A DNA stretch of 62,433 nt, the filler included, from Clostridia bacterium (lineage in GTDB: Bacteria > CBDUZB01 > JAGLHV01): the NCBI GenBank assembly GCA_030637025.1. It is 4 parts of 4 records of this genome, joined end to end, with 100 filler letters (N's around TTAATTAATTAA, not from the genome) between each part and the next. Parts side by side here need not be neighbours in the genome. Positions count along the whole stretch, not along the records: positions 1 to 23,891 come from DAOVVV010000036.1; 3 more parts are not named here. The stretch is one strand, 5' to 3'. This document shows, one piece after another, positions 1,209 through 26,569 of this stretch (the stretch's first letter is position 1; every line of letters begins with the position of its first letter). The notes below the pieces were generated by a model. The model was not told where the DNA came from, searched no databases, and was given only the letters and a program-made list of their open reading frames with translations. The position numbers were made by a program, and so were the translations under genes.

Positions 1209-1369
1209 AGGTAAAATATGTTTCTCTCTAGACGCATAATTTTACCCTTCGGGCACGTAAAAACAAGCTAAAAATAAGCAACTCGCTTTGCTCAGACAGG
1301 CTTATTTTTTTAACGCTTGTTTTCGCTAAAATTTGCTATATCGTTCGAAACACATTTCACCTTTATTTT
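1202..1369. repeat. Long nested imperfect palindrome (MITE-like element)
   Basis: Outer arms aaataaaggtaaaatatgtttc / gaaacacatttcacctttattt, inner arms aaaacaagc..aaaaataagc / gcttattttt..gcttgtttt, loop aactcgctttgctcagaca. Confidence 0.7.
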
Positions 1370-1566
1370 TTTATGATTATGTTGTGGCAAAATAGGGAAG
1401 ACGGTTAAAAGACAGTTAAAAGACGGTTAAAAGACGGTTTAATTGCCTGTCCGCCAGTTTTTAAGGAGGGAAATTTGAATTTGGGAGTTTGCTTATTTGT
1501 GTTTATGACAATGTATGACGCAACTATTTGTGACACAGTATTTATAAGTAAGGAGAATTATTACAA

Positions 1567-3297: not shown

Positions 3298-3683
3298 AAA
3301 AGACGGTTAGTTAGTTTAGATTGGTTGTATTAGTTAGATTGGTTAAAGGATAAAAGAAAAGACAGTTAAAAGATAACAAATAGTCCATGGTCCATAGTCG
3401 ATAGTCCATAGACAACAGACAGAAACTACAGTTATGAGTTATTAGTTATAAGTTATGAGTTAAAGAAATAAAAAACAAAGATAGTAAAAAGAAAAGGCAT
3501 CAAGGCATAGAGGCACAAAATAAAAAGAGAAAGATCCTCCTTACAGACGACGGATAAGGAGGTAATTTTGAAGTTTGAATTAGGGAGTTTGCTTGTTTTT
3601 GTTTATGACAATGTATGACGCGAACGAAGTGAATATATGACTATTTGTGACAAAGTATTTACAAGTAAGGATAATTATTGCAA
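3298..3683 (+). repeat. Composite intergenic repeat element (stacked short tandem repeats plus shared gene leader)
   Basis: Blocks GTCCATA-, AGTTATG-, GGCA(C/T)A-, TTTGAA-type and TGACAATGTATGACGC; blocks recur at 1396-1566, 5415-5645, 24597-24832, 26570-26803 and inverted at 11048-11375 and 61080-61158. Confidence 0.85.
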
Positions 3684-10189: not shown

Positions 10190-10900
10190 ATGACTATAAC
10201 TAAAAATAAACAATCAATTTACGCTAAAAGACTTAAAGCTATTCAAGAAGTCAGTAAGACGATTGTTTCTGACCTTTATCTCGATGACATATTGTGTTTG
10301 ATTGTTACTGTGACGGCTAAGGTAATGGGTTCAAAAATATGTTCTTTGATGCTTTTGGATGAAGAAAAGAAAGAATTGGTTATTCGGTCCAGTCATTCAG
10401 TCAGTAAAGCTTACAATAAAAAACCTAATATAAAATTGGGAGAGGGTATTTCCGGTCAGGTGGCCAAAGAAAATAAAGAGATTCAGGTTATTGATGTAAA
10501 GAAAAATTCCCGGTATGTAAATAAAAACATAGCAGTAACTGAGAATTTATGTTCTCTTTTAAGTGTTCCTTTAAGCGTTAAAGGGCGGGTAATTGGGGTA
10601 ATAAATAGTTATACATCCAAACCTCATAAATTCACTAAAAGTGAAACAGAGACTCTTATTGCCGTGGCTAATCAGGCGGCAATTGTTATTGAAAATGCTC
10701 AGTTGATGGTGAAAACAAAGATTATTCAGGAAGAGATGGAAACAAGAAAGCTGGTAGAAAGAGCAAAAGGAATTTTAATGAAAGAAAACAGATTAAGTGA
10801 AGAGGAATCTTTTCGACGCCTACAAAGAAAAAGTATGGATAACCGAAAATCAATGAAGGAAATTGCTGAAGCAATTATTATTTCTCACCAAGTTTTATAA
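10190..10900 (+). CDS. GAF-ANTAR domain RNA-binding regulator
   Basis: GAF (SLLSVPL..GRVIGVIN..F...E) plus ANTAR (RKLVERAKGILM...EEESFRRLQRKSMD.RKSMKEIAEAII). Confidence 0.92.
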   Translation: MTITKNKQSIYAKRLKAIQEVSKTIVSDLYLDDILCLIVTVTAKVMGSKICSLMLLDEEKKELVIRSSHSVSKAYNKKPNIKLGEGISGQVAKENKEIQVIDVKKNSRYVNKNIAVTENLCSLLSVPLSVKGRVIGVINSYTSKPHKFTKSETETLIAVANQAAIVIENAQLMVKTKIIQEEMETRKLVERAKGILMKENRLSEEESFRRLQRKSMDNRKSMKEIAEAIIISHQVL

Positions 10901-11047
10901 TCTAAAATATAAGCCTCTTTCCAAACTGTATTTCTTGTGCCTGCCATTTTTTCAGGCGGGTCATTCCTGTTTTTTTCTGCTTGTCCGCCAGTCCATAAGG
11001 CGGGTCATTCCTGCGAAAGCAGGAATCCATTTTGTCGATGATAGTCT

Positions 11048-11375
11048 AAATCTCCCTAACCCCCTTTTTCAAAGGGGAAAAATTTGTTCGCGTCATACAT
11101 TGTCATAAACTATGTTTTTAATATTCTTTCAAACTCCCAAATTCCTGTTTTATCCGTCAGTCAATAAGGAGGATCTTTCTCTTTTTATTTTGTGCCTCTA
11201 TGCCTTGATGCCTTTTCTTTTTACTATCTTTGTTTTTTATTTCTTTAACTCATAACTTATAACTAATAACTCATAACTGTAGTTTCTGTCTGTTGTCTAT
11301 GGATTATCGACTCTGGACTATGGACTATCTTTTAACTTTGTCTTTATTCCGTTGTCTATGGACTATGGACTGTTT
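11048..11375 (-). repeat. Inverted copy of the composite intergenic element
   Basis: 11165-11303 is the reverse complement of 3405-3543; 11048-11110 matches the reverse complement of ~24725-24785. Confidence 0.88.
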
Positions 11376-11483
11376 TATTTTGACACAATAACCAAAATTC
11401 AGTTATTGACATGTTTGGCGAAATAATGTTTAATAACGGCGATATACTATAACCCTTTTGTTGACAGGCAGGGAGATAAAATA

Positions 11484-12569
11484 ATGCCACAGTCTTTAAG
11501 AAACGTTTCCAGCCAAAAACTCAAGCATTTACCAAAACTGATTGGCCGAATGCAGTTAGCGGATTTGATGGATTTAAAGGAAATGGAATTTAAGGAACTT
11601 ATAAAGCATATAGAACATAGTCCTTTATTTAAAAAATTAACTTATCCTGTTAGTTTTAAAGATAAAAAAGAAAAAGTTATTTCTTTTGTTAAGTTTCCTA
11701 AAACAAAAATAATCCGGGCATATGAACTTAAAGAAGAAATTTTAGCTGATAAATCAGAAGTTTCCATAGAATCATTGCTGGAAGGAAGGGAAGATGTAAT
11801 TAAAGTTATCAAACAGTTGGGGATTGCCAAATTCAGGGAATATTTTCTGGATTGCCGTGATAATTTAAGCTTGGAAGAAATAGCCGAAGAATGTAGTATG
11901 AAAATAGAAAAAGTAACTGAAATAATCGATTTGGTTAATGATATTTCCATTCAGAGTTCTTTTACTACTCCTGCAATAACCGATCCCTCCACCCGGTTAT
12001 TTTATAATAAGGTTGCTTCCATTGAAAAAGAACAGGATGGATTTTCGATAGGATATTTTGATTTTTGTTATGTTAAGGGAAAATATTCAATTGATTATGA
12101 GAAATTGGCTCAATTAAAGAAAGAAGGAAAATTTAATTCAAAGCAAATAAAAGAACTGGATAATTTAACTAAAACACTGGAATTGATTAATAGCAGGAGA
12201 AATACTTTATATCAAATCTTGCAGGAAATAATTAAAAAGCAAAATAAATTTTTACTTAGCGGTAATAAAAAAGATCGAAAAGTATTTACTCAAAAAGAGA
12301 TAGCACGAATTATAGAAAAAGATTCCAGTCTTGTCTCTCGGGCGATAAAACTTAAAAGTGTGCAAGTTCCGTGGGGGAAAGAAATGATGTTAAAGGATTT
12401 TTTTCCGGACAGAAAAACAATAATAAAAGAATTTTTACAGGAAATTCTTGCCGAAAATAAAGATAAACTTAGTGACCGACAATTGACTGATATAATAAAA
12501 AAACAATTTCGGATAAATCTTTCACGAAGGTCTGTAAATGATTATCGAAGAGAAATTAATTCTAATTAA
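11484..12569 (+). CDS. Atypical sigma-54 (RpoN)-like protein
   Basis: Region I-like N-terminus (QLADLMDL..E..E...NP-like), HTH-like TQKEIA...SLVSRAI..K, LSDRQL and degenerate RpoN box LSRRSVNDYR; 361 aa. Confidence 0.7.
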   Translation: MPQSLRNVSSQKLKHLPKLIGRMQLADLMDLKEMEFKELIKHIEHSPLFKKLTYPVSFKDKKEKVISFVKFPKTKIIRAYELKEEILADKSEVSIESLLEGREDVIKVIKQLGIAKFREYFLDCRDNLSLEEIAEECSMKIEKVTEIIDLVNDISIQSSFTTPAITDPSTRLFYNKVASIEKEQDGFSIGYFDFCYVKGKYSIDYEKLAQLKKEGKFNSKQIKELDNLTKTLELINSRRNTLYQILQEIIKKQNKFLLSGNKKDRKVFTQKEIARIIEKDSSLVSRAIKLKSVQVPWGKEMMLKDFFPDRKTIIKEFLQEILAENKDKLSDRQLTDIIKKQFRINLSRRSVNDYRREINSN

Positions 12570-12588
12570 TTTTTTAAGGGAGTAAACG

Positions 12589-13884
12589 ATGAAAGATGTT
12601 CAGCAGGAAGTAAAAAGATTAAGGGAATTGTCTGCTTTACATGAAATAAGCAAATCTATGCAGACTCTGGACCTGGAACAGATTCTCCATTTGATTTTGG
12701 AAGGGGTGACCAGGGTTATCGGATTTGACCGCACCAGGCTTTATCTGATTAATGAACAAAAAAAAGAACTTGAATGTAAGATAGCTATAGGGATAGAGAG
12801 AGAAAAAATAAAAGATGTTCGGTTATCTCTGGATAAAAAAAATAGTATGGTTGCCCGTTCAATACTGGAAAAAAAGTCTTTTAATATTGAAAATGCACTT
12901 ACTGATTCGCGGGTAAATAAAAGCTTAAAGGAACTATTTGGCCTTAAGTCCTTTGCAGTAGTACCTATTTTAGGACGGGATAAGGCATTAGGTGCCATAA
13001 CTGCGGATAATCTTTTTAGTGACCGGATAATCACTCCGGAAAAATTTGAATCGCTGATTACTTTTGCTAACCAGGCAGGCCTGGCCCTGGAAAATGCGAA
13101 AATGTATGATGAATTAAAGTCATTTAATACCCAATTAGAAGAAAAAATTAAAATTGCTACCCACAACTTAAGAAAAACGCAAGATAAACTTATTCAATCG
13201 GAAAAATTAGCTGCTTTAGGAAAACTTAGTGCCGGGATTGCCCACGAGATAAAAAATCCCTTAACCAGTATCAAACTATTAGTTCATTCCCTGGCTAAGG
13301 AAATCCAGCATAATGAAATGGCAAAAAAAGATATTAAAGTTATTGAAGATGAGGTAGAAAGGGTTAATCAAATTATTAACCGGTTCTTTGATTTTGCCCG
13401 CCCTAAAGAACCGGAATTTTCTTCCATAGACATAAATCAGGTTTTGGAAGAAATTATTGCTTTGATTTCAGGGGAAATAAAAGAATGGAATATAATAATA
13501 GAAAAGGAATTTTTACCATTATCTTTTGTTAGGGCGGATAAGGGGCAAATAAAACAGGTATTTTTAAATTTATTTTTAAATGCTATTCAGGTGATGCCCA
13601 ATGGAGGAGGACTAAAAATTAGTACCAGACAAAATGAAAATTATGTACAGATAGAAATTACGGATGAAGGAGAGGGAATAGCAGAAGATAATAAGAATAA
13701 ATTGTTTGAGCCCTTTTTTACTACCAAAGAAGAGGGTATTGGTTTAGGTTTATCTATTGTGAAGAGGATTATTGAAGACCATAAAGGATGGATAAAGATA
13801 AATAATGCAAAACCTAAAGGAGCAATAGTTACTATAACCTTTCCCTGTCTGAATAATAAAAAAAATGAAAACATTAAAAATTAA
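12589..13884 (+). CDS. GAF sensor histidine kinase (NtrB-like kinase core)
   Basis: SEKLAALGKLSAGIAHEIKNPL H-box, QVFLNL..NA, D.G.G, FEPFFTTK, G.GLGL. Confidence 0.93.
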   Translation: MKDVQQEVKRLRELSALHEISKSMQTLDLEQILHLILEGVTRVIGFDRTRLYLINEQKKELECKIAIGIEREKIKDVRLSLDKKNSMVARSILEKKSFNIENALTDSRVNKSLKELFGLKSFAVVPILGRDKALGAITADNLFSDRIITPEKFESLITFANQAGLALENAKMYDELKSFNTQLEEKIKIATHNLRKTQDKLIQSEKLAALGKLSAGIAHEIKNPLTSIKLLVHSLAKEIQHNEMAKKDIKVIEDEVERVNQIINRFFDFARPKEPEFSSIDINQVLEEIIALISGEIKEWNIIIEKEFLPLSFVRADKGQIKQVFLNLFLNAIQVMPNGGGLKISTRQNENYVQIEITDEGEGIAEDNKNKLFEPFFTTKEEGIGLGLSIVKRIIEDHKGWIKINNAKPKGAIVTITFPCLNNKKNENIKN

Positions 13885-14014
13885 ACAATTAAATATAGGG
13901 ATAAGATAATAAATATAATTATAATGTTATGATAGGAAAAAAGTTCTGCGAAATAACACATTCTGCCTGCCTGTCCGCCAGTCAGTAATGTGGATCCGTC
14001 AGTCTATAATGCGG

Positions 14015-14244
14015 GTCATTCCGCACTTGATGCGGAATCTATGATGTAATAGATTCCTGCTTTCGCTGGAATGACAATGTGCTTAAAATATCTATAGATT
14101 CCTGCTCTCTATACTATGGCATAATCCCCTTTTTGGTAGTCGCAGGCTTTAGCCTGCGGAAAATCTTCGATGATAACGCAACCTAAAGGTTGCGGCTACC
14201 TCACAAAAACCTGAGTTGTGACACAGTTTGTTCGCAGGAAGGAC
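14015..14244. repeat. Nested REP/MITE cluster
   Basis: GTCATTCC/GGAATGAC pair 14015-14075; GTAG-type REP pair 14135-14200 (ggtagtcgcaggctttagcctgcg / cgcaacctaaaggttgcggctacc). Confidence 0.8.
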
Positions 14245-14304
14245 AAAAAAGATAAAAAGCTATTTTGTAGAAGTCTAACGATAGGGAAAGAAAGGAGAAT
14301 AACA

Positions 14305-14649
14305 ATGATTACTAAAAAACTGTCTGAAGTTGAAATTATGGATAATGCTCATGGTGTTGACGCCCGAAATCTTTACAATACAGAAGATGCTATGATTTCA
14401 GTTATTACATTGGAACCCGGGCAATCATTGAAGCGCCATATTACTCCTGTTAATGTGGCATTTTATGTGCTCGAAGGCTCGGGAATAGTGGAAGTTGGTG
14501 ACGAGAAGATGGAAGTCACAAAAGACACACTTATAGAAAGTCCGAAGGACATCGTACATTGCTGGCATAATGAAAGTAGTAGTCTATTACGGTTCATGGT
14601 AGTAAAAGCACCCAAACCAACAAAAAAGACTGTGTTTGTAGGTAGTTGA
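14305..14649 (+). CDS. Cupin domain protein (cassette)
   Basis: LEPG..L..H...FYVLEG.G...P....H motif; RBS aaggag before ATG 14305. Confidence 0.88.
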   Translation: MITKKLSEVEIMDNAHGVDARNLYNTEDAMISVITLEPGQSLKRHITPVNVAFYVLEGSGIVEVGDEKMEVTKDTLIESPKDIVHCWHNESSSLLRFMVVKAPKPTKKTVFVGS

Positions 14650-14659
14650 AAAAAAATAA

Positions 14660-14719
14660 GCATAACAAAGCGTTGCACAACGACGAAATAAACCGCGAGT
14701 GTGAATGCTGTCGTTAAAA
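14660..14719 (+). other. attC site
   Basis: GCATAAC-aaagcgttgcac...gtgaatgctgtc-GTTAAAA, directly after a stop codon and before the next RBS. Confidence 0.75.
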
Positions 14720-14727
14720 GGAGAAAA

Positions 14728-14994
14728 ATGGATATGATTAGAATTATCATTGGCATAATAGGATTAAGTGGTTTTATGTATGGCTTTTATTGTCAAGAGA
14801 AGGCAATAAAACATATATCAAAAGAAAAAATTGCAGAACTAAAAGATACAAGCATATTATGTAGACGAATGCCTTCAAAAAAAGTTTTAAGCGACGAAGG
14901 ATTAAAATATTACAAAGGATTCTGTGTTGGTGCAGGAATATTCGTAACAAGTATCATATTAATTGTAATAATTTCTCAATTTATTAAGAATTAG
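14728..14994 (+). CDS. Hypothetical two-TM membrane protein (cassette)
   Basis: RBS aggag, two hydrophobic segments. Confidence 0.6.
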   Translation: MDMIRIIIGIIGLSGFMYGFYCQEKAIKHISKEKIAELKDTSILCRRMPSKKVLSDEGLKYYKGFCVGAGIFVTSIILIVIISQFIKN

Positions 14995-15083
14995 CTTCTA
15001 GTAACTTCATTCAGTTGACTGTGATTTGTGGCTCGTGCCCCCAGCAGCTTAATCGATTGTTTAATCAACGTCTCTCAAAATCG

Positions 15084-15262
15084 TCCATTCTAATAAGACC
15101 TTTATCAATTTATGCATCCACAATATAACTATTAAATATTATATCTTTTGTCGTCGGTCAAGAGAAAAAAATAAAGAAGTTGACAGTAACTCCTTTGTTT
15201 TCTATAATGATGTAGTGTAGTTTTGTGAAAATAGAGTAACCGGATAATATATAATGTTAGGA
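15084..15262 (+). promoter_or_regulatory. Repeated promoter plus attI-like module, copy 1
   Basis: TTGACA(15180)-N17-TATAAT(15203); ends gtaaccggataatatataatGTTAGGA; homologous to 16648-16826 and 20308-20490. Confidence 0.8.
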
Positions 15263-15270
15263 TCAAAATT

Positions 15271-15687
15271 ATGATAAAAATCTTAATATTTAAAATAATT
15301 AAATCAATCAGCATAATCTTTCCAATTATTTTTGTGGTAACATTGTTGATAGCTATCGTTAGTTTTAAACTTCTATTAAAAACAAACTTTCCGCACAATT
15401 TAAAAAAACTTATTTTCCCCAATCCAATGCAATATGATATAAAGGATAAGAAAAGAGAAATAGTGGGGATAAGGGTTACAAATATATTCATGTTTGTTAC
15501 GGGAGCTATTGTTCTGTTCTCTTTTATTTTCGGAAATATCGTGGGATGGATTAGTTCCGGTGATTTTAATAAAGTAAACATGCCGGCTGTTACTATACCT
15601 TTTTTTTCGTGTTTCATCATCGCGCAATTCATAATTAAAAGATATTACAAAAAAATTATGCGTTTGCATAATATTTCTGATAAATAA
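15271..15687 (+). CDS. Hypothetical membrane protein (cassette)
   Basis: Three hydrophobic segments; followed by a degenerate attC. Confidence 0.6.
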   Translation: MIKILIFKIIKSISIIFPIIFVVTLLIAIVSFKLLLKTNFPHNLKKLIFPNPMQYDIKDKKREIVGIRVTNIFMFVTGAIVLFSFIFGNIVGWISSGDFNKVNMPAVTIPFFSCFIIAQFIIKRYYKKIMRLHNISDK

Positions 15688-15690
15688 AAG

Positions 15691-15761
15691 TTCTAACTAC
15701 TCGCTTCCCCTGATATTTTTCCGCTCCGATCCAAAAGGCAGGTGAACTTAGTCCTTATGTG
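15691..15761 (+). other. Degenerate attC site
   Basis: TTCTAAC-tactcgcttcccctg...caggtgaacttagtc-CTTATGT. Confidence 0.55.
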
Positions 15762-15838
15762 GAATTCCGAACCCTGCTTTTAAGAAAGAGAAATATAGGA
15801 TGGCATATAAAGTAGTTTTTTAAATAATAAAATTAGAG

Positions 15839-16579
15839 ATGGGGAATGACTTTATGAAACAAAATTTAGAAATATACAATCAATTGGATTGGTGGAATCC
15901 TCAACACTCACTTAAGCAAATGGTTCCTATTAAATTTAATTATTTTAGTAATAAAATTGGAAATCTTAAAGGTTTGAAAATTTTAGATATTGGGTGCGGG
16001 GGCGGTCTTTTATCGGAAGAATTTGCCGGGAGGGGTGCCGAGGTTACAGGAGTAGATATTTCGGAAAAATCTCTTGAAATTGCTAAAAGTCATGCTTTAG
16101 AAAATAAACTAAAAATCAATTATAAAAGTGGATATGCCGAAAATATTCCTGCGGAAGACAATACATTTAATGCTGTAATATGTGCAGACTGTCTTGAACA
16201 TGTTGATAATCTTGAAAAAGTAATTAAAGAGATTTCCAGAGTACTTAAAAATGATGGGTTTTTTTGTTATGATACTATTAACAGAACTTTTTTGTCAAAA
16301 ATTGCTGTTGGTTGGATTGCAAATAGTGTCTTAAAATGGCAAAATCGACAGTTAAATGTTTCTGAAAAAAATTATGCTGTGCATGATTGGAAAAAATTTA
16401 TAAAACCTGCAGAACTTTTTCAATTAATGAATAAATACGACTTAAAAAACGTTGAGATAAAAGGAATACAATTTGATGGGATTAAAAATGGTAGTTTCAA
16501 GGCTAAAATCGGGGAAAATACAAAAATAGCATACATTGGCTATGCTAATAAAGATATTGAAAAAGGAAAAAGGGATTAA
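15839..16579 (+). CDS. UbiG-like class I SAM-dependent O-methyltransferase
   Basis: WW motif near N-terminus, LDIGCGGGLLSE, LEHV, TINRT, HDW.KFIKP.EL. Confidence 0.85.
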   Translation: MGNDFMKQNLEIYNQLDWWNPQHSLKQMVPIKFNYFSNKIGNLKGLKILDIGCGGGLLSEEFAGRGAEVTGVDISEKSLEIAKSHALENKLKINYKSGYAENIPAEDNTFNAVICADCLEHVDNLEKVIKEISRVLKNDGFFCYDTINRTFLSKIAVGWIANSVLKWQNRQLNVSEKNYAVHDWKKFIKPAELFQLMNKYDLKNVEIKGIQFDGIKNGSFKAKIGENTKIAYIGYANKDIEKGKRD

Positions 16580-16647
16580 AAAACAAATACTTCAATTAAA
16601 TTATTAAACAACGTTTCTCAAAATCACTCTATATATCCCTTTAGCTT

Positions 16648-16826
16648 AAAATCCATTTTAATAACACTTTATTAATTTATACATCCACTCTATAACTATT
16701 AACTATCATATGTTTTGTCGTCGGTCAAGAGAAAAAAATAAAAAAGTTGACAGGAACTCCCTTTTTTTTATAGTATGTAATATAGTTTTGTGAAAACAGA
16801 GTAACCGGATAATTATAATGTTATGC
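16648..16826 (+). promoter_or_regulatory. Repeated promoter plus attI-like module, copy 2
   Basis: TTGACA(16747)-N16-TATAGT; ends gtaaccggataattataatGTTATGC. Confidence 0.8.
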
Positions 16827-17200
16827 ATAAAATAAAAAATATCTTATTTACATTGATAGCGATTATTCTCCTATCAGTAATTTATTTTGCTATCAGACAC
16901 CAGATAGTTAAGAGTGCGGACAATGATTCGGATTCCTTTTTTGCTAGTTTTCTTCATACTGAAGATAGTTTTTTGTCACACCACCTTCAGTATCTTAAGT
17001 CAGATCATACATATGCTTTAGCTATTATCGGTATACACAAGGATGATATTAGCAATTTTAATTATAAAAACTCAACCCCGAAAATTAATTTTATGTTGAA
17101 TGAAGCAACTGTAGAAGTCTCGTGGCATTTAAAGATTGTATTTTCTAGAATGGATGACGGTTGGTTTATTACAAAACTTGATGAGTATATTGATAATTGA
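16823..17200 (+). CDS. Hypothetical protein with N-terminal TM (cassette)
   Basis: ATG lies inside the GTTATGC core; followed by a clear attC. Confidence 0.65.
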   Translation: MHKIKNILFTLIAIILLSVIYFAIRHQIVKSADNDSDSFFASFLHTEDSFLSHHLQYLKSDHTYALAIIGIHKDDISNFNYKNSTPKINFMLNEATVEVSWHLKIVFSRMDDGWFITKLDEYIDN

Positions 17201-17206
17201 AATGAG

Positions 17207-17288
17207 GCATAACAAATCGCTCCACGCCGACCAGATTTACCGCCTAAAAAACGGCGTCGATTCTGGCGGGTGAGCTCGGGCGTTAGGA
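17207..17288 (+). other. attC site
   Basis: GCATAAC-aaatcgctccac-gccgaccaga...tctggcgg-gtgagctcgggc-GTTAGGA; best-formed site in the array. Confidence 0.9.
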
Positions 17289-17302
17289 GTAGGAAAATTA
17301 AT

Positions 17303-17878
17303 ATGAGAAAAAGAATCGGATATTTATTGTTTTTGTGCCTGATGACAACGGTTGCTAATGCATATCAACCTTTGCCGCCAGAACTAAAATATCATATTTC
17401 ACAAAATGAAAGATATTTACTGGAAATTTTGCCCTGTTCAAAACAATCCGCAGAAGATACAAAACATGGACTACAAAGAAATGCCTTAACTATTGTCATT
17501 TACGAAAAAGAAGACATACTCATCGGAGAGACAAAGGTATATTATTGGCAAGAGCAGACATTTTTTAGAGTCAAACATCCTGATAGTGTAGCTAACACTT
17601 TAGCGGAGGCTATACAAGGAGTTATTTCTAATGATGGCAATTGTATTGTAATTCTCTCCCAAGTAAATCCCATGGCTAGGATACATCCGGTTGATGATAT
17701 ACATGTATATGATAGATCCGGTAATTTGTTAAAAAGTTTCTCTCAAGAAGAAATATTCAAAAATCAGATAAAAGATGTTCTTTCAATATCAATTGATGAA
17801 AAGAAATATCAGATCAAGGCGGTATCTGTAGAAGGGGAAACTAAATATATTAGTTTAAAGACTTTCAAAATCAAATAA
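17303..17878 (+). CDS. Hypothetical secreted protein (cassette)
   Basis: Signal peptide ending ANA; ATG 17303 follows the attC. Confidence 0.65.
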   Translation: MRKRIGYLLFLCLMTTVANAYQPLPPELKYHISQNERYLLEILPCSKQSAEDTKHGLQRNALTIVIYEKEDILIGETKVYYWQEQTFFRVKHPDSVANTLAEAIQGVISNDGNCIVILSQVNPMARIHPVDDIHVYDRSGNLLKSFSQEEIFKNQIKDVLSISIDEKKYQIKAVSVEGETKYISLKTFKIK

Positions 17879-18001
17879 AAGGGGACGTCCCCCTTATAAT
17901 CCCAGTAACCCCTTTGTTTTTTATAATAATACAGGGAGAAGATAGGGGACAATACTATAACAAATCCCTGATCTCTATCGTTATACAGTAAAATATAAAA
18001 A

Positions 18002-18238
18002 ATGGAAAAATTTTGCGTATTTTGTGGCTCAAAACCCGAATCAAAGAATAAAGAACATATATTGCCTCAATGGTTGATAAAAATGAGAGACGATCCTAAT
18101 AGAGAGATTTATCTCGGCAGAAAATGGAATAGTCCTTCTTTGGAGAAGTGGAAATTTTCCTTTTCAAAAAAAAAGGAAAGATTTTGTGTAGGGAAAAAGG
18201 GATTAAAAAACAGATACTTCAATAAATTAAAATTTTAA
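18002..18238 (+). pseudogene. Truncated HNH-like protein N-terminus
   Basis: CxxC...EHILPQWL motif; from ~18172 the ORF runs into a repeated non-coding linker. Confidence 0.6.
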
Positions 18239-18414
18239 GCAACGTCTCCCAAGTCCCTCCCAAATAATAATTAGTTCCGAAAGGACGCAACGTCCCCTAA
18301 AATTCTTACTATAGGGGAGAAGAACGTATCTTTTTAGAAAACAATAGTATGTCCCCTAAAACTTATTTTGCCAAAAGGTAGGGGTAAAAAAAATATTATT
18401 TTAAGGAGGATGAA

Positions 18415-18942
18415 ATGACTGATTTTAAAGGCCGTATTATTCGTGCTGCTAAACTGGATGTTAATCTGTATGAAGAAGTTGAAGCTGACAGGAATGCATT
18501 AGGGCAAGCTATGTGGGTTGTTGTTCTCTCCAGTCTGGCGGCTGGTGTAGGAAGTATTGCAATGGGAGGACTTGGCGGAATTTTGATGGGAACAATCGCA
18601 GCTCTTGTTGGATGGTATGTTTGGGCATATCTCACTTATCTTATTGGTACCAGATTACTTCCGGAGCCACAGACCAAAGCAAATCACAGTGAGTTATTGC
18701 GAACTATTGGCTTTTCGAGTGCTCCTGGATTGATTCGGATACTGGGCATTATCCCGGGGTTGGCAAAAATCGTTTATCTAATCGCCTCAATTTGGATGCT
18801 GGTGGCAATGGTAATTGCAGTCAGACAAGCTCTTGATTATAAAAGCACATTACGCGCTGTAGGGGTTTGTGTGATTGGTTGGATTGTTCAAATATTAATC
18901 TTTGCCTTATTGTTTTCTTTTATAGGTGGTTTTGTAAGGTAG
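18415..18942 (+). CDS. YIP1 family membrane protein
   Basis: YEEVEAD..A..QA, LLRTIGFSSAPG, AVRQALDY.ST.RA pattern; multiple TMs. Confidence 0.8.
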   Translation: MTDFKGRIIRAAKLDVNLYEEVEADRNALGQAMWVVVLSSLAAGVGSIAMGGLGGILMGTIAALVGWYVWAYLTYLIGTRLLPEPQTKANHSELLRTIGFSSAPGLIRILGIIPGLAKIVYLIASIWMLVAMVIAVRQALDYKSTLRAVGVCVIGWIVQILIFALLFSFIGGFVR

Positions 18943-19192
18943 TCTAATGCTTTTTAAAAGCTATGGGGAAAAAAGGTGGATGTTGTTAAATAGTTAAATA
19001 ACTATTAACATAACTTTGTTTAAATCTGATAGCCAAAAAAACAGCAGAAGGGGTGAAAAAACAGCTAAAGCCAGAGTTTTGATATCCATGCCTCGGGCAA
19101 AGCTGTTTAGGGGAGCAGTGCGTTGCAATAGGCTTAGAATTAAACAAGAGCAGTGCCAGTATAAGCATAGCGTATAATCGGGGGGAAAAATA

Positions 19193-19705
19193 ATGAAAAT
19201 AAAATACGAGTCAACCATTGATGAAGCTGTTGCGACGCAATTACGCTTAATAGAACTCTCAAAAACTTTGAGAAAAATTAAATGGGAAGGGTTATTCTTT
19301 ATACCTATTATCTTTATAGCAGTCTATTTCATAATCTCGGGTAAAATGGTGGAAAAATTAACATGTGCTGTTTTCGCCAGCATCATATTTATTCCTATAT
19401 ATATAGCTTTGTATAAGCTAACAATAAAAAAGAGGATACGAAAGTTACTAATCGAAAGTTTTGGCACTGATAAACCTGTGCCTAGTGAGTATGAATTTGT
19501 TGAGGACGGATTGATTTTTCGTAAATTAGGTGTTGATATTAAATTCGAATGGAATAAAGTTACGGAAATCAATGAAGATGAAAAAATGTTAGAGTTTATC
19601 ATCGGAAAGAAAGGTCTTGCTTTAATTCCTAAAAGAATCTTTGAAAATGAGCAACAAAAGAATGAATGGTTAAATTATGCTAAACAAAAAACTAATATCT
19701 CCTAA
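19193..19705 (+). CDS. YcxB-like membrane protein (cassette)
   Basis: Two TMs followed by F.EDG.....W..V..I.E....LIPKRIF; TCCTAAC inverse core at the stop codon. Confidence 0.75.
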   Translation: MKIKYESTIDEAVATQLRLIELSKTLRKIKWEGLFFIPIIFIAVYFIISGKMVEKLTCAVFASIIFIPIYIALYKLTIKKRIRKLLIESFGTDKPVPSEYEFVEDGLIFRKLGVDIKFEWNKVTEINEDEKMLEFIIGKKGLALIPKRIFENEQQKNEWLNYAKQKTNIS

Positions 19706-19790
19706 CTACTTAACAATGTCCCTCTATTTTTATATATTTTACAGTGTAGTTTTCTGAAAATAGTTTATAATGTTATATGGAGGGTTAATA

Positions 19791-20168
19791 ATGAAAAAAA
19801 TATTGCTTCTCATCATATTAGGTCTATCATTTCAAATCATTTCTTATGCCAGCAAAATACATCCCCTCGATTTCACCAAATTAAATCAAATATCTTCAAT
19901 AGTTGTGGTAGGGGAAGTAATCGATATTAAAAAAATAGATGAAATTGATAGTACTTCAATATTTGATGTTACAATTGAAAAGTTAAGCATTATTAAAGGA
20001 TCTATGATAGAAGATAGATTTGTATTGCCAATGCACATTGGTGGACTTAAAGGATTTGATGTTATGCTGCAAAAAAATAAAAAATATGTTTTTTTTGTGA
20101 ATCCCGAAAAAAGAAGAAATTATTTTAGGCTTGCATATCCTGGAGCAGTCGCAAAATTTGAAAAATAA
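19791..20168 (+). CDS. Hypothetical secreted protein (cassette)
   Basis: MKKILLL signal peptide, RBS ggagg. Confidence 0.65.
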   Translation: MKKILLLIILGLSFQIISYASKIHPLDFTKLNQISSIVVVGEVIDIKKIDEIDSTSIFDVTIEKLSIIKGSMIEDRFVLPMHIGGLKGFDVMLQKNKKYVFFVNPEKRRNYFRLAYPGAVAKFEK

Positions 20169-20307
20169 AACCACACTGTATAACAAAAGAAAAAGGCTGG
20201 ATTTTGTGTCGGGAAAAAGGACTTGAAAAACAGATACTTCAATAACTTTAAAACTTTAAGCAACGTTATATAATAAAAAATATCCCACAAAACATATAAA
20301 AAATACT

Positions 20308-20490
20308 TTAAAATCCATTTCAATAACACTTTATTAATTTATGCAGCTACTGTATAACTGTTAAATATTATGTGTTTTGTCATCGGGTAAGAGAAAAAAA
20401 TAAAAAAGTTGACAGAAACTCATTTGTTTTTTATAATAAGGCAATCTGGTTTTGTGAAAATGGAGTAGCCAGATAATTATGATGTTAGAA
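20308..20490 (+). promoter_or_regulatory. Repeated promoter plus attI-like module, copy 3
   Basis: TTGACA(20409)-N17-TATAAT(20432); ends gtagccagataattatgatGTTAGAA. Confidence 0.8.
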
Positions 20491-20498
20491 GAGAAAAA

Positions 20499-21143
20499 AT
20501 GGAACTATCAGAATTAGCAAAGAATATATCTGTGATTATTGGTGCTTTAACCTTAATATCAGGGATTAGGGCATGGAAACGTGAATACATCGGCAAACGC
20601 AAAATTGAATTAGCCGAAGATACTCTAATGTTGTTTTACCAAGCAAGAGATGCCATTCGTGAGATCCGTAATCCATTTGGTAGGATTGGCGAGGGAAGTT
20701 CAAGACAGAAAGCAGATAATGAAACAGATAGGGAAACGGAATTGTTAAACCGGGCTTATGCAGTATTTGAACGTTATCAAAAACAAGAAGAAATATTTAA
20801 TAAAATCCAATCTATTCGATATCGTTTTATGGCTCGGTTTGGCAGAGAAAACGAATCACCATTCATCGAATTAAATATAATCCTGAAGGATATTTTTCTA
20901 TCTGCTCACATGTTAGGAGACTATTATGGGGAGAGACAGGGTCGGGTAAAGATAGAAGGTGAGGAATTAGAGAAGCACCTTAAAGAGATGCATGAACAAG
21001 AAGCTGTTTTTTGGTTTCAAGGTGAAAAACGTGACAAGATTGGTCCAAGGGTTGAAAAGGTTATTAAACAAATTGAGGACATAACAAAAGCGACTCTTGC
21101 TGAAAAGGATATTTTGTTTAAAAAATTATTGAAAAAAGACTAA
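20499..21143 (+). CDS. Hypothetical protein, N-terminal TM plus helical domain (cassette)
   Basis: 214-aa ORF between the attI-like core and a degenerate attC. Confidence 0.75.
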   Translation: MELSELAKNISVIIGALTLISGIRAWKREYIGKRKIELAEDTLMLFYQARDAIREIRNPFGRIGEGSSRQKADNETDRETELLNRAYAVFERYQKQEEIFNKIQSIRYRFMARFGRENESPFIELNIILKDIFLSAHMLGDYYGERQGRVKIEGEELEKHLKEMHEQEAVFWFQGEKRDKIGPRVEKVIKQIEDITKATLAEKDILFKKLLKKD

Positions 21144-21205
21144 CAAGGTCATGTACCAGATCCCAAAAGCCTTGCAGCTTTTAGTCCAGATGTCCGGCGT
21201 TACCT
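21138..21205 (+). other. Degenerate attC site
   Basis: GACTAAC-aaggtcatg...aaaagc..gctttt...ccggc-GTTACCT. Confidence 0.5.
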
Positions 21206-21246
21206 GGAAAATAAAAACATAATTTATTGAAAAGAGAAGAGGAATC

Positions 21247-22635
21247 ATGGCTTTTAATCCAAAACAAGAATATCAAGTAGTTGAGGATCTATGTACAATA
21301 AAAGATTTCTCTGATTATAGTGAAGAGTATGTGACAAGACCACCTTATCAAAGAAAAAATGTATGGTCTGTAGGAAAAAAGCAAAACTTACTTGATAGTT
21401 TATTTCGTAGATATTACATACCCAAAATTGTGATAAGAGAGGTTAGGTTGGGAGAGGATAAAACCATCAAAGAAATAATTGACGGACAACAGCGGATAAT
21501 TACTGCACAAGAATTCATTCAAAACAAATTACGCTTACCGAAATCTTTAAAGAATATCCATCCCGAATTACCAGGAAAAACTTATTCTGAACTGAGCGTC
21601 GAAATGAGGCGTTTCGTAGACAAAGAATTAAAATATAAGGCAGATGTTGTGAAAGGCATTGAGGATCCCAAAAATACGCTTCATCAAAGAATAGCAACGG
21701 AGATATTTTGGCGCCTCCAACAAGGTGAGTCTCTAAATTTTATGGAAATAGCACATGCCCGTCTCAATAGCTTAACAAGAAATTTTATTGTAAAGTATAG
21801 TGATGATATTTCATTTGACTTCAAAAAGTATAGTCCAGTTGATGATAATCCACATAAACACTCTTTTTTTAAAATAATTGAGAAAACTAATAATAGAATG
21901 CAACATTTAATGTTGATGGCTCGCTTCATTCTACTTGAAAAAGCTGAAGGTCCTATCGAACTTAAAAACTCTGATGTGGAGAATCTTATAGAAAATAACA
22001 CTTCAGATGACGGGATAGGAAATGAGTCCTTTGAGACTGAAAACGTTGCACATAAGGTTTTATTCAATCTAAATGCTCTATACGACGTGTTCAAAAATGA
22101 TACCATGCTAAAAAATGGTGGCTCAATACGAGAATTAAAGCGAGAATATATAATGATATCGCTATATTTATTAATACGCCACCTTAAACAATACTACGTT
22201 TTTGGCGAAAAAGAAAAAAACCTGTTTATAAACTTTTTTCTCAAATTTCATGAACGGTGGCAAAATCCTGATGACGAAGATAGAGATGTTTTATCGTTTT
22301 CTGAACATAGACAGCAAGACAAAAAAAATGTAGAAGCACGCCATATTATAATAAGACAATTATTCTTCCAATACATTAAAGAACAAAAGAAGAATATTGT
22401 CCTTAAAGACGAAAAAAGAAGTTTTAATGAAGCTGAAAGAATAGCTATTTATCGCAGGGATAAAGGTCTTTGTCAAAAGTGTCTCAAAGAAGGAAAAAAT
22501 GAAAAAGAATCAGCCGTAGGCTGGCCTGAATATGAAGCAGATCATATAATTGCACATGCTAAGGGTGGTCCTACTAAGATACTTAATAGTCAAGTCCTTT
22601 GCATTTATCATAATAAACGAAAAGGAGATTCTTAA
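21247..22635 (+). CDS. DUF262 plus C-terminal HNH nuclease (GmrSD-like restriction/defence protein)
   Basis: PPYQR..VW, IIDGQQR, IFWRLQ.G..L in the N-terminus; CxxC, EADHIIAHAKGGPT...N.QVLC..HN in the C-terminus. Confidence 0.88.
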   Translation: MAFNPKQEYQVVEDLCTIKDFSDYSEEYVTRPPYQRKNVWSVGKKQNLLDSLFRRYYIPKIVIREVRLGEDKTIKEIIDGQQRIITAQEFIQNKLRLPKSLKNIHPELPGKTYSELSVEMRRFVDKELKYKADVVKGIEDPKNTLHQRIATEIFWRLQQGESLNFMEIAHARLNSLTRNFIVKYSDDISFDFKKYSPVDDNPHKHSFFKIIEKTNNRMQHLMLMARFILLEKAEGPIELKNSDVENLIENNTSDDGIGNESFETENVAHKVLFNLNALYDVFKNDTMLKNGGSIRELKREYIMISLYLLIRHLKQYYVFGEKEKNLFINFFLKFHERWQNPDDEDRDVLSFSEHRQQDKKNVEARHIIIRQLFFQYIKEQKKNIVLKDEKRSFNEAERIAIYRRDKGLCQKCLKEGKNEKESAVGWPEYEADHIIAHAKGGPTKILNSQVLCIYHNKRKGDS

Positions 22636-22644
22636 TTTAAAAAC

Positions 22645-22711
22645 ATCTAACAATTCGCTGCAGCGGATTTAAAAGCTGGCGCCTTTAAACAGCTGAGCTC
22701 AAATCTTATGA
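22645..22711 (+). other. attC site (core G mutated)
   Basis: ATCTAAC-aattcgctgcagcgg-ttttaaa..tttaaa-cagctgagctcaaat-CTTATGA. Confidence 0.8.
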
Positions 22712-22723
22712 GAAAAATTAAAA

Positions 22724-23548
22724 ATGAATAAAATATTTATTGGAATTAAAAACAATATTAAAAAATGGTTACTCGGTTGGTTTTTAGGGTATACAGTTCT
22801 TTGGACAATCATAGAGCCCATTCTTGCTTTTACAACGTTAAACATAACTGGATTGTACAAATTCCTTGGATTCATCCTACTTGCCTTAATAATTGCCACT
22901 TATCGTGTATATCCTAAAAAAGAGATCTCATTCTTGCTGAAAAATACAGGAACAAAGATAACAATCGTTTTTGATGATTTGTTTAAATTGCCTGGATGCA
23001 AAGCTATCCCTGTTAATGAATTTTTTGATTCCAAAATTGGAAAACTTGTCTCTCTCAAAAGCTTGCATGGTATTTTCCTACAAACAATATTGGGTGGTCA
23101 TTCGTTAATCTTTGATTCATTCGTCGATGCTCAATGTAAAGATATTCCCCACGAAATGATTGAAAGACCGGAAGGAAAAAAGAAACAATATCCAATAGGT
23201 ACAACTGTAGTAATAACACATAATTCTATAAAATATCTTTTATTCGTAGCCGCAAAAACAGATTTAAGCGACAAAGCTTTTTCAAATCCAGCCATAATGC
23301 TTGAAGCCCTAGCAGGATTTTGGACTAAATCTCGATGCGAGCACAATGGCGAAAAAATTGTTATTCCTCTTGTTGGCGGGGGACTTTCAGGAGTAGGGTT
23401 ACCTGCTAGAAGTCTTATTGAATTAATTTTAATTTCTATATTAAAAGCTACCAAAGAGCAGGAACTTTCAACCTCTATTACAATTTGTTTGCTTCCCGAC
23501 CTTATAAAACAGGTTGATTTATCAGAAATACAAAAAAACTGGAGGTAA
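22724..23548 (+). CDS. thsA: Thoeris type II effector ThsA-like (two TM plus macro domain)
   Basis: Two N-terminal TMs, IPVNEFFD, SLHG.F, YPIGT, IPLVGGGLS motifs; immediately followed by a TIR-like gene. Confidence 0.8.
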   Translation: MNKIFIGIKNNIKKWLLGWFLGYTVLWTIIEPILAFTTLNITGLYKFLGFILLALIIATYRVYPKKEISFLLKNTGTKITIVFDDLFKLPGCKAIPVNEFFDSKIGKLVSLKSLHGIFLQTILGGHSLIFDSFVDAQCKDIPHEMIERPEGKKKQYPIGTTVVITHNSIKYLLFVAAKTDLSDKAFSNPAIMLEALAGFWTKSRCEHNGEKIVIPLVGGGLSGVGLPARSLIELILISILKATKEQELSTSITICLLPDLIKQVDLSEIQKNWR

Positions 23549-23550
23549 AA

Positions 23551-23781
23551 ATGGCATATAGGAATGGAACTTATGTGGCTTTTAACGGTTGTGATACAAC
23601 AGATCCAACAAAAGGTGATCTTAAATATTATGGACTATTGCAGGCTTGGAATAAATCTAGAAACTTTGATTTCACATTTAGTGATAGTCATAAGAAGACT
23701 TGCTCAGTTTCGGATGAAAGCAAAATGATTACTTTGAAAAGGGGATTTTTTAGGGGACAATACTATAACAAATGTCAATAA
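23551..23781 (+). pseudogene. thsB: Truncated Thoeris ThsB-like TIR domain protein
   Basis: MAYRNGTYVAF..D.KYY.LL.AW....F.F.DSH N-terminus; homology lost at ~23740, where a repeated motif begins; only 76 aa. Confidence 0.75.
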
Positions 23782-23891
23782 GTAAAAAAACAAAAAGCTC
23801 CCCTATCAGTCTTTAAAGACCTTTTTTTTTAAAAATATAATCTACAAATTCAGTGTGTTTCACCAACTGCCAATTTCTCCAATAATCGTTA

Positions 23892-24832: not shown

Positions 24833-26569
24833 ATGAAAAGAAAATATTTAAATTTTTGTAAAGTGGAATTATTTTTTTTGGTTTTTGTTGGAATTATGTT
24901 TATTTTTAATGTTAAAGTTTGGGCGGGAACATTGATTTCTATTTCTTCTGCAGTTTATGATGGGGGTTCTAATGATTGTGCGACTGGGGTTGCCATAGAT
25001 GGAAATAATGATATTATTGTTACTGGATATCGTGATAGTGGAGCAAATAATGATTATTATACTATAAAATATAATAGTAATTTAGTGGTTATTACTTCGG
25101 CAGTTTATGATGGAGGTAATAATGACCAACCCTATGAAGTATTGATAACTGAAAATAATAACATTATTGTTGGAGGAGGAAGTACCCTTACATTTGCTGA
25201 GGATTATTTTACTATCAAGTATGATAATAACTTGTCTACAATACTTGCCTCGGCTACTTATAATGGTCCGGGAAATAATAGTGATTTTGTTTTTGGAATA
25301 ATAGAAGATGGGGCAGAAAATATTATTGTTACCGGGGAAAGGTGGAATGGAGCAAATTGGGGTTATTTTACTATAAAATATGATAGTAATTTAGTGGTTA
25401 TTACTTCAGCAGCCTATGATACAAGTAATCATGATTCTGCGAGGGGAGTAACGATAGATGGAAACAATAATATTATTGTTACTGGAAGAAGTAACAATGG
25501 AACAAATGATGATTATTATACCATAAAATATGATAATGATTTAGTGATTATTACTTCGGTAACTTATGATAGAGGTAGTAATGATTCTGCGAGGGGAGTA
25601 ACGATAGATGGAAGTAATAATATTATTGTTACCGGAGAAAGTAACAACGGAGCAAATTTTGATTATTTTACCATAAAATATGATAGTAATTTAGTGGTTA
25701 TTACTTCGGCAATTTATGATGGGGGCGGTAATGATTATGTGTATGGGATATTGACACATGGAAATAATAATATTATTGTTACTGGAGGGAGTTGGAATGG
25801 AGCAAGTTTTGATTATTTTACCATAAAATATGATAGTAATTTAGTGGTTATTGCTTCGGCAACTTATGATGGAGGCAATAGTCGTTCTGCGCAAGGAGTG
25901 ATGACGGATGATAATAATAATATTATAGTTACCGGATATAGTCATAATGGAGCAAATTATGATTATTTCACCATAAAGTATCTTGGTTCGCCCCAGGTGT
26001 TTTCTCTTTCTCCTTTTTTTGCTTCTCCCGGAGAAACAGTAGATATTACTATTAATGGGTTGAATTTCTATAATGGTATTGATGTTGCTTTTAGTAATTT
26101 TGGAATACTGGTAAATTCCATTGATTTTATTAGTGCTACTCAATTGCGAGCTAATATTACCATTGATGATAATGCTTTTTCCGGAACAAGGGATATCACG
26201 GTTACTAATATTGATGACGCATATGGTATGTTAACCAGTGGATTTGAAATCAGGGAAAACATAGGTTTTCAGGAGGAAGAAGATTCTCATTTTGTTAGGC
26301 TAACTCCAAAGATAATTACACCTAATGGGGATGGAATAAATGATGCAGCTAATTTTATTTTTACCAATCCTGATAATGAAACAGCTGAGGGAATGATATT
26401 TGATTTATCGGGCAGTGTGGTGAGAGATAATTTACCCTCAAGTAGTACTACATCGTTAACCTGGGATGGCCGGGATAGTAGTGGATGTGTTGTAAGTGGC
26501 AAGGTATATATATATCAAATTAAAATAGGTGGGAAAGTATTTAACGGGACGGTTGTGGTGGCGAAATAG
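24833..26569 (+). CDS. Secreted 7-repeat beta-propeller protein with IPT/TIG and T9SS-like CTD
   Basis: Full-length paralog of 1567-3297. Confidence 0.88.
   Translation: MKRKYLNFCKVELFFLVFVGIMFIFNVKVWAGTLISISSAVYDGGSNDCATGVAIDGNNDIIVTGYRDSGANNDYYTIKYNSNLVVITSAVYDGGNNDQPYEVLITENNNIIVGGGSTLTFAEDYFTIKYDNNLSTILASATYNGPGNNSDFVFGIIEDGAENIIVTGERWNGANWGYFTIKYDSNLVVITSAAYDTSNHDSARGVTIDGNNNIIVTGRSNNGTNDDYYTIKYDNDLVIITSVTYDRGSNDSARGVTIDGSNNIIVTGESNNGANFDYFTIKYDSNLVVITSAIYDGGGNDYVYGILTHGNNNIIVTGGSWNGASFDYFTIKYDSNLVVIASATYDGGNSRSAQGVMTDDNNNIIVTGYSHNGANYDYFTIKYLGSPQVFSLSPFFASPGETVDITINGLNFYNGIDVAFSNFGILVNSIDFISATQLRANITIDDNAFSGTRDITVTNIDDAYGMLTSGFEIRENIGFQEEEDSHFVRLTPKIITPNGDGINDAANFIFTNPDNETAEGMIFDLSGSVVRDNLPSSSTTSLTWDGRDSSGCVVSGKVYIYQIKIGGKVFNGTVVVAK

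Follow-up and report, generated by a model that had tools for sequence, protein, structure and literature searches.

In a textbook integron, one attI site and one promoter (Pc) lie beside the integrase gene intI, so that expression of distal cassettes is poor, and arrays that lack an integrase are taken for debris. In integrons of classes 1 and 2, attI pieces of 14-244 nucleotides (nt) were reported to replace attC within arrays, with IntI1 both excising and inserting them (Gonzales Machuca et al., 2026, PMC12901181). Clusters of attC sites without an integrase (CALIN) have also been described, and in the survey of Cury et al. about half of them were located in genomes without any intI (Cury et al., 2016, PMC4889954). 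Here we analysed a stretch of 62,433 nt (hereafter the window) from the genome of an uncultured seep bacterium (Clostridia bacterium, GCA_030637025.1). It consists of four contigs of one metagenome-assembled genome (MAG) joined by runs of N, and the finding lies wholly inside the first of them, contig C11 (DAOVVV010000036.1, window positions 1-23891). Positions 13926-23891 are a CALIN, that is, an integron-type cassette array with no integrase gene nearby, and the array is headed and punctuated by copies of a promoter-bearing repeat which we call the module. We consider it probable that the modules are units derived from attI and Pc which head and punctuate integrase-less cassette arrays in this lineage.

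The source genome (G000) is a draft of 77 contigs with a completeness of 97.8%, and its GC content is about 32%. It was compared with G001, G002 and G003, the only other genomes of its phylum in the compared set. The four belong to one genus and are all draft MAGs, 86-98% complete.

The module and its boundary

The preliminary description of this stretch had reported a module that occurs three times, a strong promoter consensus in each copy (perfect in two) and three shorter relics. All of these were recovered:

13905..13932, + strand, array head: promoter-less copy of the last ~25 nt of the module (attI-like core), junction 13926/13927, directly 3' of a histidine-kinase gene
15060..15258, + strand, module 1: -35 at 15180-15185, -10 at 15203-15208, 48-nt leader and core ending in GTT at 15256-15258, junction between 15256 and 15257
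16648..16822, + strand, module 2: -35 at 16747-16752, -10 at 16769-16774, GTT at 16820-16822
17903..17930, + strand, promoter relic of the module (spacer and -10 only) inside a cassette, 89% identical to 15184-15211
19741..19778, + strand, relic module (leader and core with an internal deletion and without -35), GTT at 19772-19774, repeat match 95%
20308..20486, + strand, module 3: -35 at 20409-20414, -10 at 20432-20437, GTT at 20484-20486

The relic at the array head had been placed at 13920-13932, and sequence of the module was present there. Modules 1 and 2 shared 88% identity over 176 nt and modules 1 and 3 shared 83% over 177 nt, with a range of 77-88% for all three pairs. Their predicted promoters were the best three sigma-70-type matches on the + strand of positions 13800-21300, with 12 of 12 consensus bases at 15180-15208 and at 20409-20437 and 11 of 12 at 16747-16774.

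Outside C11, further copies in G000 were found on contigs C65, C66 and C34, the last in a short form. Module matches numbered six in G000, 13 in G001 and three in G003, with none in G002. A scan of genome contigs returned six loci, all in G001 and G003, and scans of metagenome contigs (with two patterns) and of viral contigs returned no match. Three short matches (24-31 nt) in unrelated genomes looked like chance. Rfam contained no family for these elements; its matches in the window were rRNA and tRNA only.

When 21 copies from three MAGs were anchored at their right ends, they were alike up to a terminal triplet (GTT in 20 copies and ATT in one) and then different in every copy. Similarity running past the G/TT point had been named beforehand as an observation that would speak against an attI-like site, and all 21 copies diverged right after the triplet. 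Upstream extent was variable, the copies being of a long (~175 nt) or a short form (~90-105 nt) apart from some one-offs; the part common to all copies runs from ~10 nt before the -35 box through GTT. Column identity in 20 aligned copies (one of the 21 was dropped for an internal deletion) was 0.97 in the -35 box, 0.77 in the spacer, 0.83 in the -10 box, 0.92 in the 48 nt between -10 and GTT, and 0.63 after GTT. Conservation of the 48 nt that precede the junction exceeds that of the spacer and the -10 box, so this segment is under more constraint than a promoter alone needs. In addition, the core at the array head is conserved behind the same histidine-kinase gene in three species (G000, G001 and G003). 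A conserved RNA structure in the leader was considered as well and rejected, as each of three copies folded differently (z-scores +0.18, -1.72 and -2.04).

attC sites and junctions

A crude attC scanner of poor specificity was used solely to pick seed sites, and a covariance model was built from an alignment of 12 local GC-rich palindromic sites from G000, G001 and G003. The consensus fold consisted of an R box, an unpaired spacer of 5-6 nt, an L box with a bulged base and a stem, and compensatory changes were seen at 10 of the 16 pairs. With filters off, the model returned these matches in the window, every one of them on the strand that carries the modules:

14660..14719, + strand, partly decayed attC belonging to the cupin cassette (24.9 bits; regional E 2e-4)
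15691..15760, + strand, decayed attC whose R' box is no longer G-initial (24.5 bits; inverse core complements the junction at 6 of 7 bases)
17207..17288, + strand, canonical attC (48.6 bits; inverse core exactly complementary to the 16820 junction)
17955..17986, + strand, attC with its middle deleted (18.8 bits; the ends alone align)
21138..21205, + strand, doubtful weak attC (12.9 bits, E 0.2)
22645..22711, + strand, canonical attC (42.2 bits)

True integron cassettes make up the DNA behind the modules, and the attC sites that close them have the R and L boxes, the unpaired spacer and the variable stem of such sites. Genome-wide, the model matched nine sites in G000, 19 in G001, four in G003 and none in G002. 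The sole genome without attC sites was also without modules, four related genomes being too few for a test of this association.

When a cassette is integrated, the six bases past the crossover come from its own attC and should complement the inverse core of that attC. We compared the seven bases at each junction with the inverse core of the next model attC for 23 junctions from all loci, using 5000 permutations. Exact complements occurred at nine of the 23 junctions, against a permutation mean of 1.0 and a maximum of 6. The module ends are therefore true insertion points. Among the 14 module-type junctions followed by a model attC, complementarity was 7/7 in seven, 6/7 in six and 5/7 in one, and the nine junctions between one attC and another gave seven matches in two cases, six in two, five in four and four in one. 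In this set, the module ends thus complement inverse cores better than the attC junctions do. With 13 of 14 module-type junctions complementing at 6-7 of 7 bases, our results agree with the earlier claim that an IntI-type cassette insertion point follows each module.

Five particular pairs of core and inverse core had been proposed in the window, and four of them stand, the last one weakly. The pair 16820/17207 is exact, 13926/14660 and 15256/15691 agree at 6/7, and 20484/21138 agrees at 5/7 with an attC that is itself weak. The fifth pair, 19772/20178, agrees at 6/7 and is not countable, because position 20178 lies inside an element resembling a miniature inverted-repeat transposable element (MITE) whose consensus carries the same seven letters; no attC is present there. 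By analogy with one class 2 cassette (described in PMC12901181), a rearrangement at an old inverse core may have taken place at 20178.

Modules at other loci and cassette turnover

Modules head arrays at several separate chromosomal loci, as the preliminary description had suggested. On C34, a short module lies 3' of conserved chromosomal genes and a toxin-antitoxin pair; behind it come two cassettes, both of which have an attC. The last of these attC sites runs into a flank shared with G003 contig C359, where the same module is followed by a single, different cassette, and in G001 (contig C50) at least five attC sites lie behind the same module as on C34. Furthermore, about 2 kb of upstream DNA together with the module was common to G000 C65 and G001 C26 at 90% identity, and the two were different from GTT onward. 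The expectation that relatives would hold different cassettes behind the same module was therefore confirmed at the C34/C359 and C65/C26 loci. Inside the C11 array, the units that end at modules 1, 2 and 3 lack an attC, and the module stands in its place.

Two further structures were noted near modules outside the window. A near-perfect hairpin of ~17 bp, with core-like and inverse-core-like words in its arms, lies just upstream of the short module on C34 (74440-74480) and is also present in G003. On C66, 156-nt tandem repeats lie directly upstream of the module.

Search for the integrase

TIGR02249 scored over cut-off in none of the four genomes of the phylum. The same search, as a positive control, returned IntI over cut-off in eight of 61 genomes, none of them G000-G003. 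At E <=0.01, only two Xer-like genes per genome and one 174-aa recombinase in G001 were found. The Xer-like genes aligned to TIGR02249 in two pieces, skipping model positions ~189-239, so that the IntI-specific insert was absent. Each of the four genomes has exactly two XerC/XerD-like genes (304 and 317 aa), which are the only full-length tyrosine recombinases there. The array has the attC-closed cassettes of a complete integron, but the gene before its head encodes a histidine kinase and not an integrase; at least two clustered attC sites with no intI nearby are what defines a CALIN. The absence of intI from the lineage is not proven, because the genomes are draft MAGs and integron regions assemble badly. 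A comparison with attI-like words beside intI genes of other phyla (18 loci) gave nothing useful.

A new recombinase gene beside the modules was also considered. This candidate was rejected, since the upstream gene shared by three copies encodes DUF2188 and the third recombinase of G001 has only 174 aa and lies ~8.5 kb away. The latter gene (contig C159, 2875-5000; L134 1477-2873) encodes a tyrosine recombinase with the catalytic domain only, upstream of a module and its array. It adjoins a gene read by eye as ParA-like and looks like part of a plasmid or an integrated element.

The MITE-like element

The MITE-like element measures 220-290 nt and has terminal inverted repeats of ~24 nt, and its short and long forms differ by an internal segment of ~66 nt. 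There were at least 21 matches in G001 and eight in G000, many of them inside cassette arrays. Full copies were found in G001 (e.g. L100, L104 and L112), and the copies in the window, at 16539-16620, 18166-18250 and 20178-20267, are listed below; in addition, positions 15060-15083 of module 1 resemble a MITE end. The module region had been read as one unit. This did not hold, as the 90-nt repeat that lies upstream of both module 2 and module 3 belongs to the MITE-like element, of which it forms the end. The idea that this repeat was the lineage's own attC family was dropped too, because it is the right end of the MITE-like element, with no attC fold and no model match.

One good dif-like site was found in the source genome, near position 11005 of C72 on the - strand, by means of a dif consensus. 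Just outside its left arm are bases similar to the outer end of the MITE inverted repeat, and the MITE may be tied to Xer-type sites.

Gene content of the array and its surroundings

The remaining features of the C11 array are as follows:

13937..14292, block of repeats resembling repetitive extragenic palindromic (REP) sequences, between the array-head junction and the cupin gene; absent from G003, with copies also on C34, C65 and C66
14305..14649, + strand, cassette open reading frame (ORF) with a cupin domain (Pfam Cupin_2, E 2e-13)
14719..14994, + strand, small cassette ORF of 91 aa, no family (ORF call, Pfam)
15271..15687, + strand, cassette ORF of 138 aa, no family, starting 14 nt past the module 1 junction
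15839..16579, + strand, methyltransferase ORF (Pfam Methyltransf_11, E 3e-27); no attC model match behind it, the unit being closed by module 2
16539..16620, + strand, MITE-like element, right-end fragment
16823..17200, + strand, cassette ORF of 125 aa, no family
17303..17878, + strand, cassette ORF of 191 aa, no family
18166..18250, + strand, MITE-like element, right end
18415..18942, + strand, Yip1-domain ORF (Pfam Yip1)
19193..19705, + strand, YcxB-like ORF (Pfam)
19791..20168, + strand, cassette ORF
20178..20267, + strand, MITE-like element, right 90 nt, not an attC (92-96% identical to G001 MITE copies; no attC model match)
20499..21143, + strand, cassette ORF of 214 aa, no family
21247..22635, + strand, cassette with a GmrSD-type defence gene (DUF262 and HNH; Pfam)
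22724..23548, + strand, ORF with a ThsA-type Macro domain (Pfam ThsA_Macro, E 5e-40); the array continues as far as position 23891, where the contig ends

Just before the array head, a 361-aa ORF (11484-12569) that matches only the DNA-binding domain of sigma-54 is followed by the GAF histidine kinase. The first cassette, with the cupin gene, is common to G000 and G003, and in G003 this gene is directly behind the junction. The Yip1 ORF is 95% identical to a gene on G001 contig C157 which is placed ~400 nt downstream of a module.

Defence-type genes were abundant in the cassettes and their neighbours. They included GmrSD-like, ThsA-type Macro, AbiEi/AbiEii, KAP NTPase and two ThsB-type TIR genes, and were located at window 21247-23548, at 10847-16172 of G000 C65 (AbiE and KAP NTPase) and on G001 C159 (L089 4920-6029). 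Defence genes were likewise reported among the cassettes of chromosomal integrons in a recent preprint (10.1101/2024.07.02.601686).

The array region was present in DNA runs labelled as cold-seep metagenome, and no RNA run was listed as containing it. When contigs of four DNA runs were compared with positions 13000-23891, two of them (X2 and X3) spanned the array in near-identical pieces that break at repeats, and these pieces neither confirmed nor contradicted the order of units across modules. The end of contig C11 (23753-23891) is a repeat, 99% identical to C66 12083-12220. On one X2 contig, a module-like end (15259) was joined to the repeat at 23753, which could represent another copy or a variant arrangement. 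Elsewhere, window 1-5414 and 24833-26569 contain three ORFs that are 576-578 aa long, and one of these matches a TIG domain weakly; their DNA is related to a repeat-rich secreted-protein gene on G000 C66 (32132-33363).

Discussion

The explanation that we prefer is that the module is the lineage's site for cassette insertion and expression, that is, a double-stranded, non-hairpin, attI-like site of ~48 nt directly behind a sigma-70-type promoter. IntI-type recombination between G and TT would have joined circular cassettes to the module, so that each module would then have a different cassette, read into by its promoter. Copies of the site, together with ~17 to ~300 nt of upstream DNA, would have been carried to other places, where they would head separate arrays at several chromosomal loci. 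Inside arrays, such copies would replace attC at the end of a unit, as attI and truncated-attI cassettes do in class 1 and 2 integrons. The integrase responsible may have been lost, may be encoded in unassembled DNA or may have arrived on a mobile element. Promoter activity, binding and recombination of an integrase at the module, as well as the spread of its copies, are steps that we infer.

Several observations weigh against this explanation. Descent of the module from attI is not established, because no copy was found beside an intI gene in the four genomes of the phylum or in 57 others, and the scans of metagenome and viral contigs gave no match; the preliminary description had proposed a check for such a copy. 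The decay of several attC sites in the window is as compatible with an inactive relic as with an active system, and no attC was detectable behind some modules within the DNA examined (C66, G001 C26 and several that lie at contig ends). On their left, the copies end raggedly and could not be tied to recombination sites. A piece of the MITE-like element, of varying length, lies directly upstream of ~8 module copies, which an attI origin does not explain; these pieces might be DNA carried along from an ancestral copy. The activity of the promoters is predicted from their consensus match. Finally, the carriers are three closely kin species, so the 21 copies are not independent.

A bolder version, which we put forward tentatively and regard as rather doubtful, is that the capture site itself is a multi-copy, self-spreading unit of ~90 nt made up of promoter plus attI. 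Such a unit would seed expression-ready sites on the chromosome and in arrays, so that every cassette would be near a strong promoter, and it would be run by a visiting or host recombinase not encoded in the phylum as a canonical IntI.

The main rival, which we consider unlikely, is that a host promoter repeat served as a genomic hotspot (attG). A passing integrase would have inserted cassettes at GTT since G-W-T suffices, and selection would have kept the insertions behind a promoter. In fact, IntI1, IntI2 and IntI3 were reported to insert at thousands of genomic G-W-T sites, with expression if these are near promoters (Loot et al., 10.1101/2022.09.11.507474). On G000 C14, a relative of the module that consists of the promoter only stands in front of a normal glycosyltransferase gene, which is in line with this idea, and so are the isolated attC sites without a module on C32, C1 and C26. 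However, none of the 21 copies continues into a shared unoccupied sequence, and conservation is higher in the 48 nt before GTT than in the promoter spacer or the -10 box. Promoter-less copies of the last 17-25 nt at cassette junctions (window 13926 and G003 C201) also argue against a mere promoter repeat, and copies inside arrays need a site-tied way of moving. Although G-W-T is present, the site is one conserved multi-copy sequence and not an incidental one. It is even less probable that the module is a gene-less promoter cassette as in Vibrio superintegrons, i.e. a cassette with a promoter and its own unusual or decayed attC. Most of the 29 gene-less Vibrio cassettes tested by Blanco et al. 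had sense-strand promoter activity (Blanco et al., 2024, PMC11014356), module 1 is found by itself between a pair of junctions (15059-15256), and the long form has an inverse-core-like word ~134 nt before GTT. However, with filters off the attC model found no match in modules 1 and 2, and module 3 reached only 11.7 bits (E 0.38), with the -10 box taken as the inverse core. Bottom-strand DNA folds of the three modules were no better than shuffles (z-scores -0.54, +0.76 and -0.51). The inverse-core-like word, the sole candidate arm, lies in a region that the short form lacks and is without its final C in three of 13 long copies, and in 12 of the 13 copies its pairing with the module end was no better than that of random AT-rich 30-mers. 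Covariance model, folds and arm pairing all agree with the earlier statement that the modules have no attC hairpin; the module is not an attC. The unit is not bounded by an attC of its own, and modules also stand at array heads beside conserved chromosomal genes.

Very improbable, in our judgement, is an Xer-type recombination in which the conserved XerC/XerD-like pair inserts units at a dif-like site formed by the module end. The presence of exactly this pair in each of the four genomes would suit it, and the module end loosely resembles the dif-like site on C72. However, when aligned to the C72 site, the module has a central region of only 3-4 nt, and the junction falls inside the would-be right arm and not at the border of the central region. 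Moreover, the partners are classical hairpin attC sites with matching inverse cores, which is the signature of IntI, and Xer recombinases are not known to use such substrates.

Activity of the modules would mean that capture sites are able to multiply and disperse without depending on the integrase, and that clusters lacking an integrase can function as parts of a distributed system. In that case, the truncated-attI cassettes of clinical integrons would be a special case of something older and wider.

Comparison with known systems

Our literature search, made at the level of listings, found no account of multi-copy promoter-plus-attI units heading integrase-less chromosomal arrays. However, the novelty that the preliminary description saw in repeated attI-like units is reduced by the attI-copy cassettes of class 1 and 2 integrons (PMC12901181), by promoter cassettes and by CALINs. 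The nearest likeness is to the attI-duplicated and truncated-attI ('delta-attI-type') cassettes (Gonzales Machuca et al., 2026, PMC12901181, also citing Partridge et al., 2009), in which a non-hairpin piece replaces attC at the 3' end of a unit. In both cases the right end is fixed at the crossover and the left end is variable (14-244 nt there, ~17-300 here), and the next cassette's own core follows the crossover. According to that account, the parent attI beside intI is known for truncated-attI cassettes and the pieces were shown to recombine, whereas no intI or parent platform is known for the copies described here. Unlike the truncated-attI cassettes described there, most copies here have a full, strong (predicted) promoter, and they also head separate chromosomal arrays in an uncultured lineage.

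The short, non-coding units in the array are similar to the promoter cassettes of Vibrio, which drive downstream cassettes and free their expression from the distance to Pc (Blanco et al., 2024, PMC11014356). However, as described in that report, those are ordinary cassettes, closed by attC and diverse in sequence, whereas the modules form one conserved family without attC that occurs at array heads as well. With attG sites (Loot et al., 10.1101/2022.09.11.507474), the module shares its character as a double-stranded, non-integron G-W-T receptor whose expression depends on a promoter and near which no integrase need be encoded. The attG sites of that preprint are unrelated to one another and incidental, whereas here one conserved 48-nt sequence is multiplied and was always found occupied. 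As in the CALINs defined by Cury et al. (2016, PMC4889954), at least two close attC sites occur with no intI nearby; in contrast to CALINs as presented there, the clusters here are headed and punctuated by a conserved, promoter-bearing site that is met again at several loci and in three species. The feature is thus less new than at first reading, yet it is more interesting than an ordinary CALIN, because no integrase was seen in the lineage, the arrays at shared loci differ between species, and the site itself is conserved, multiplied and dispersed.

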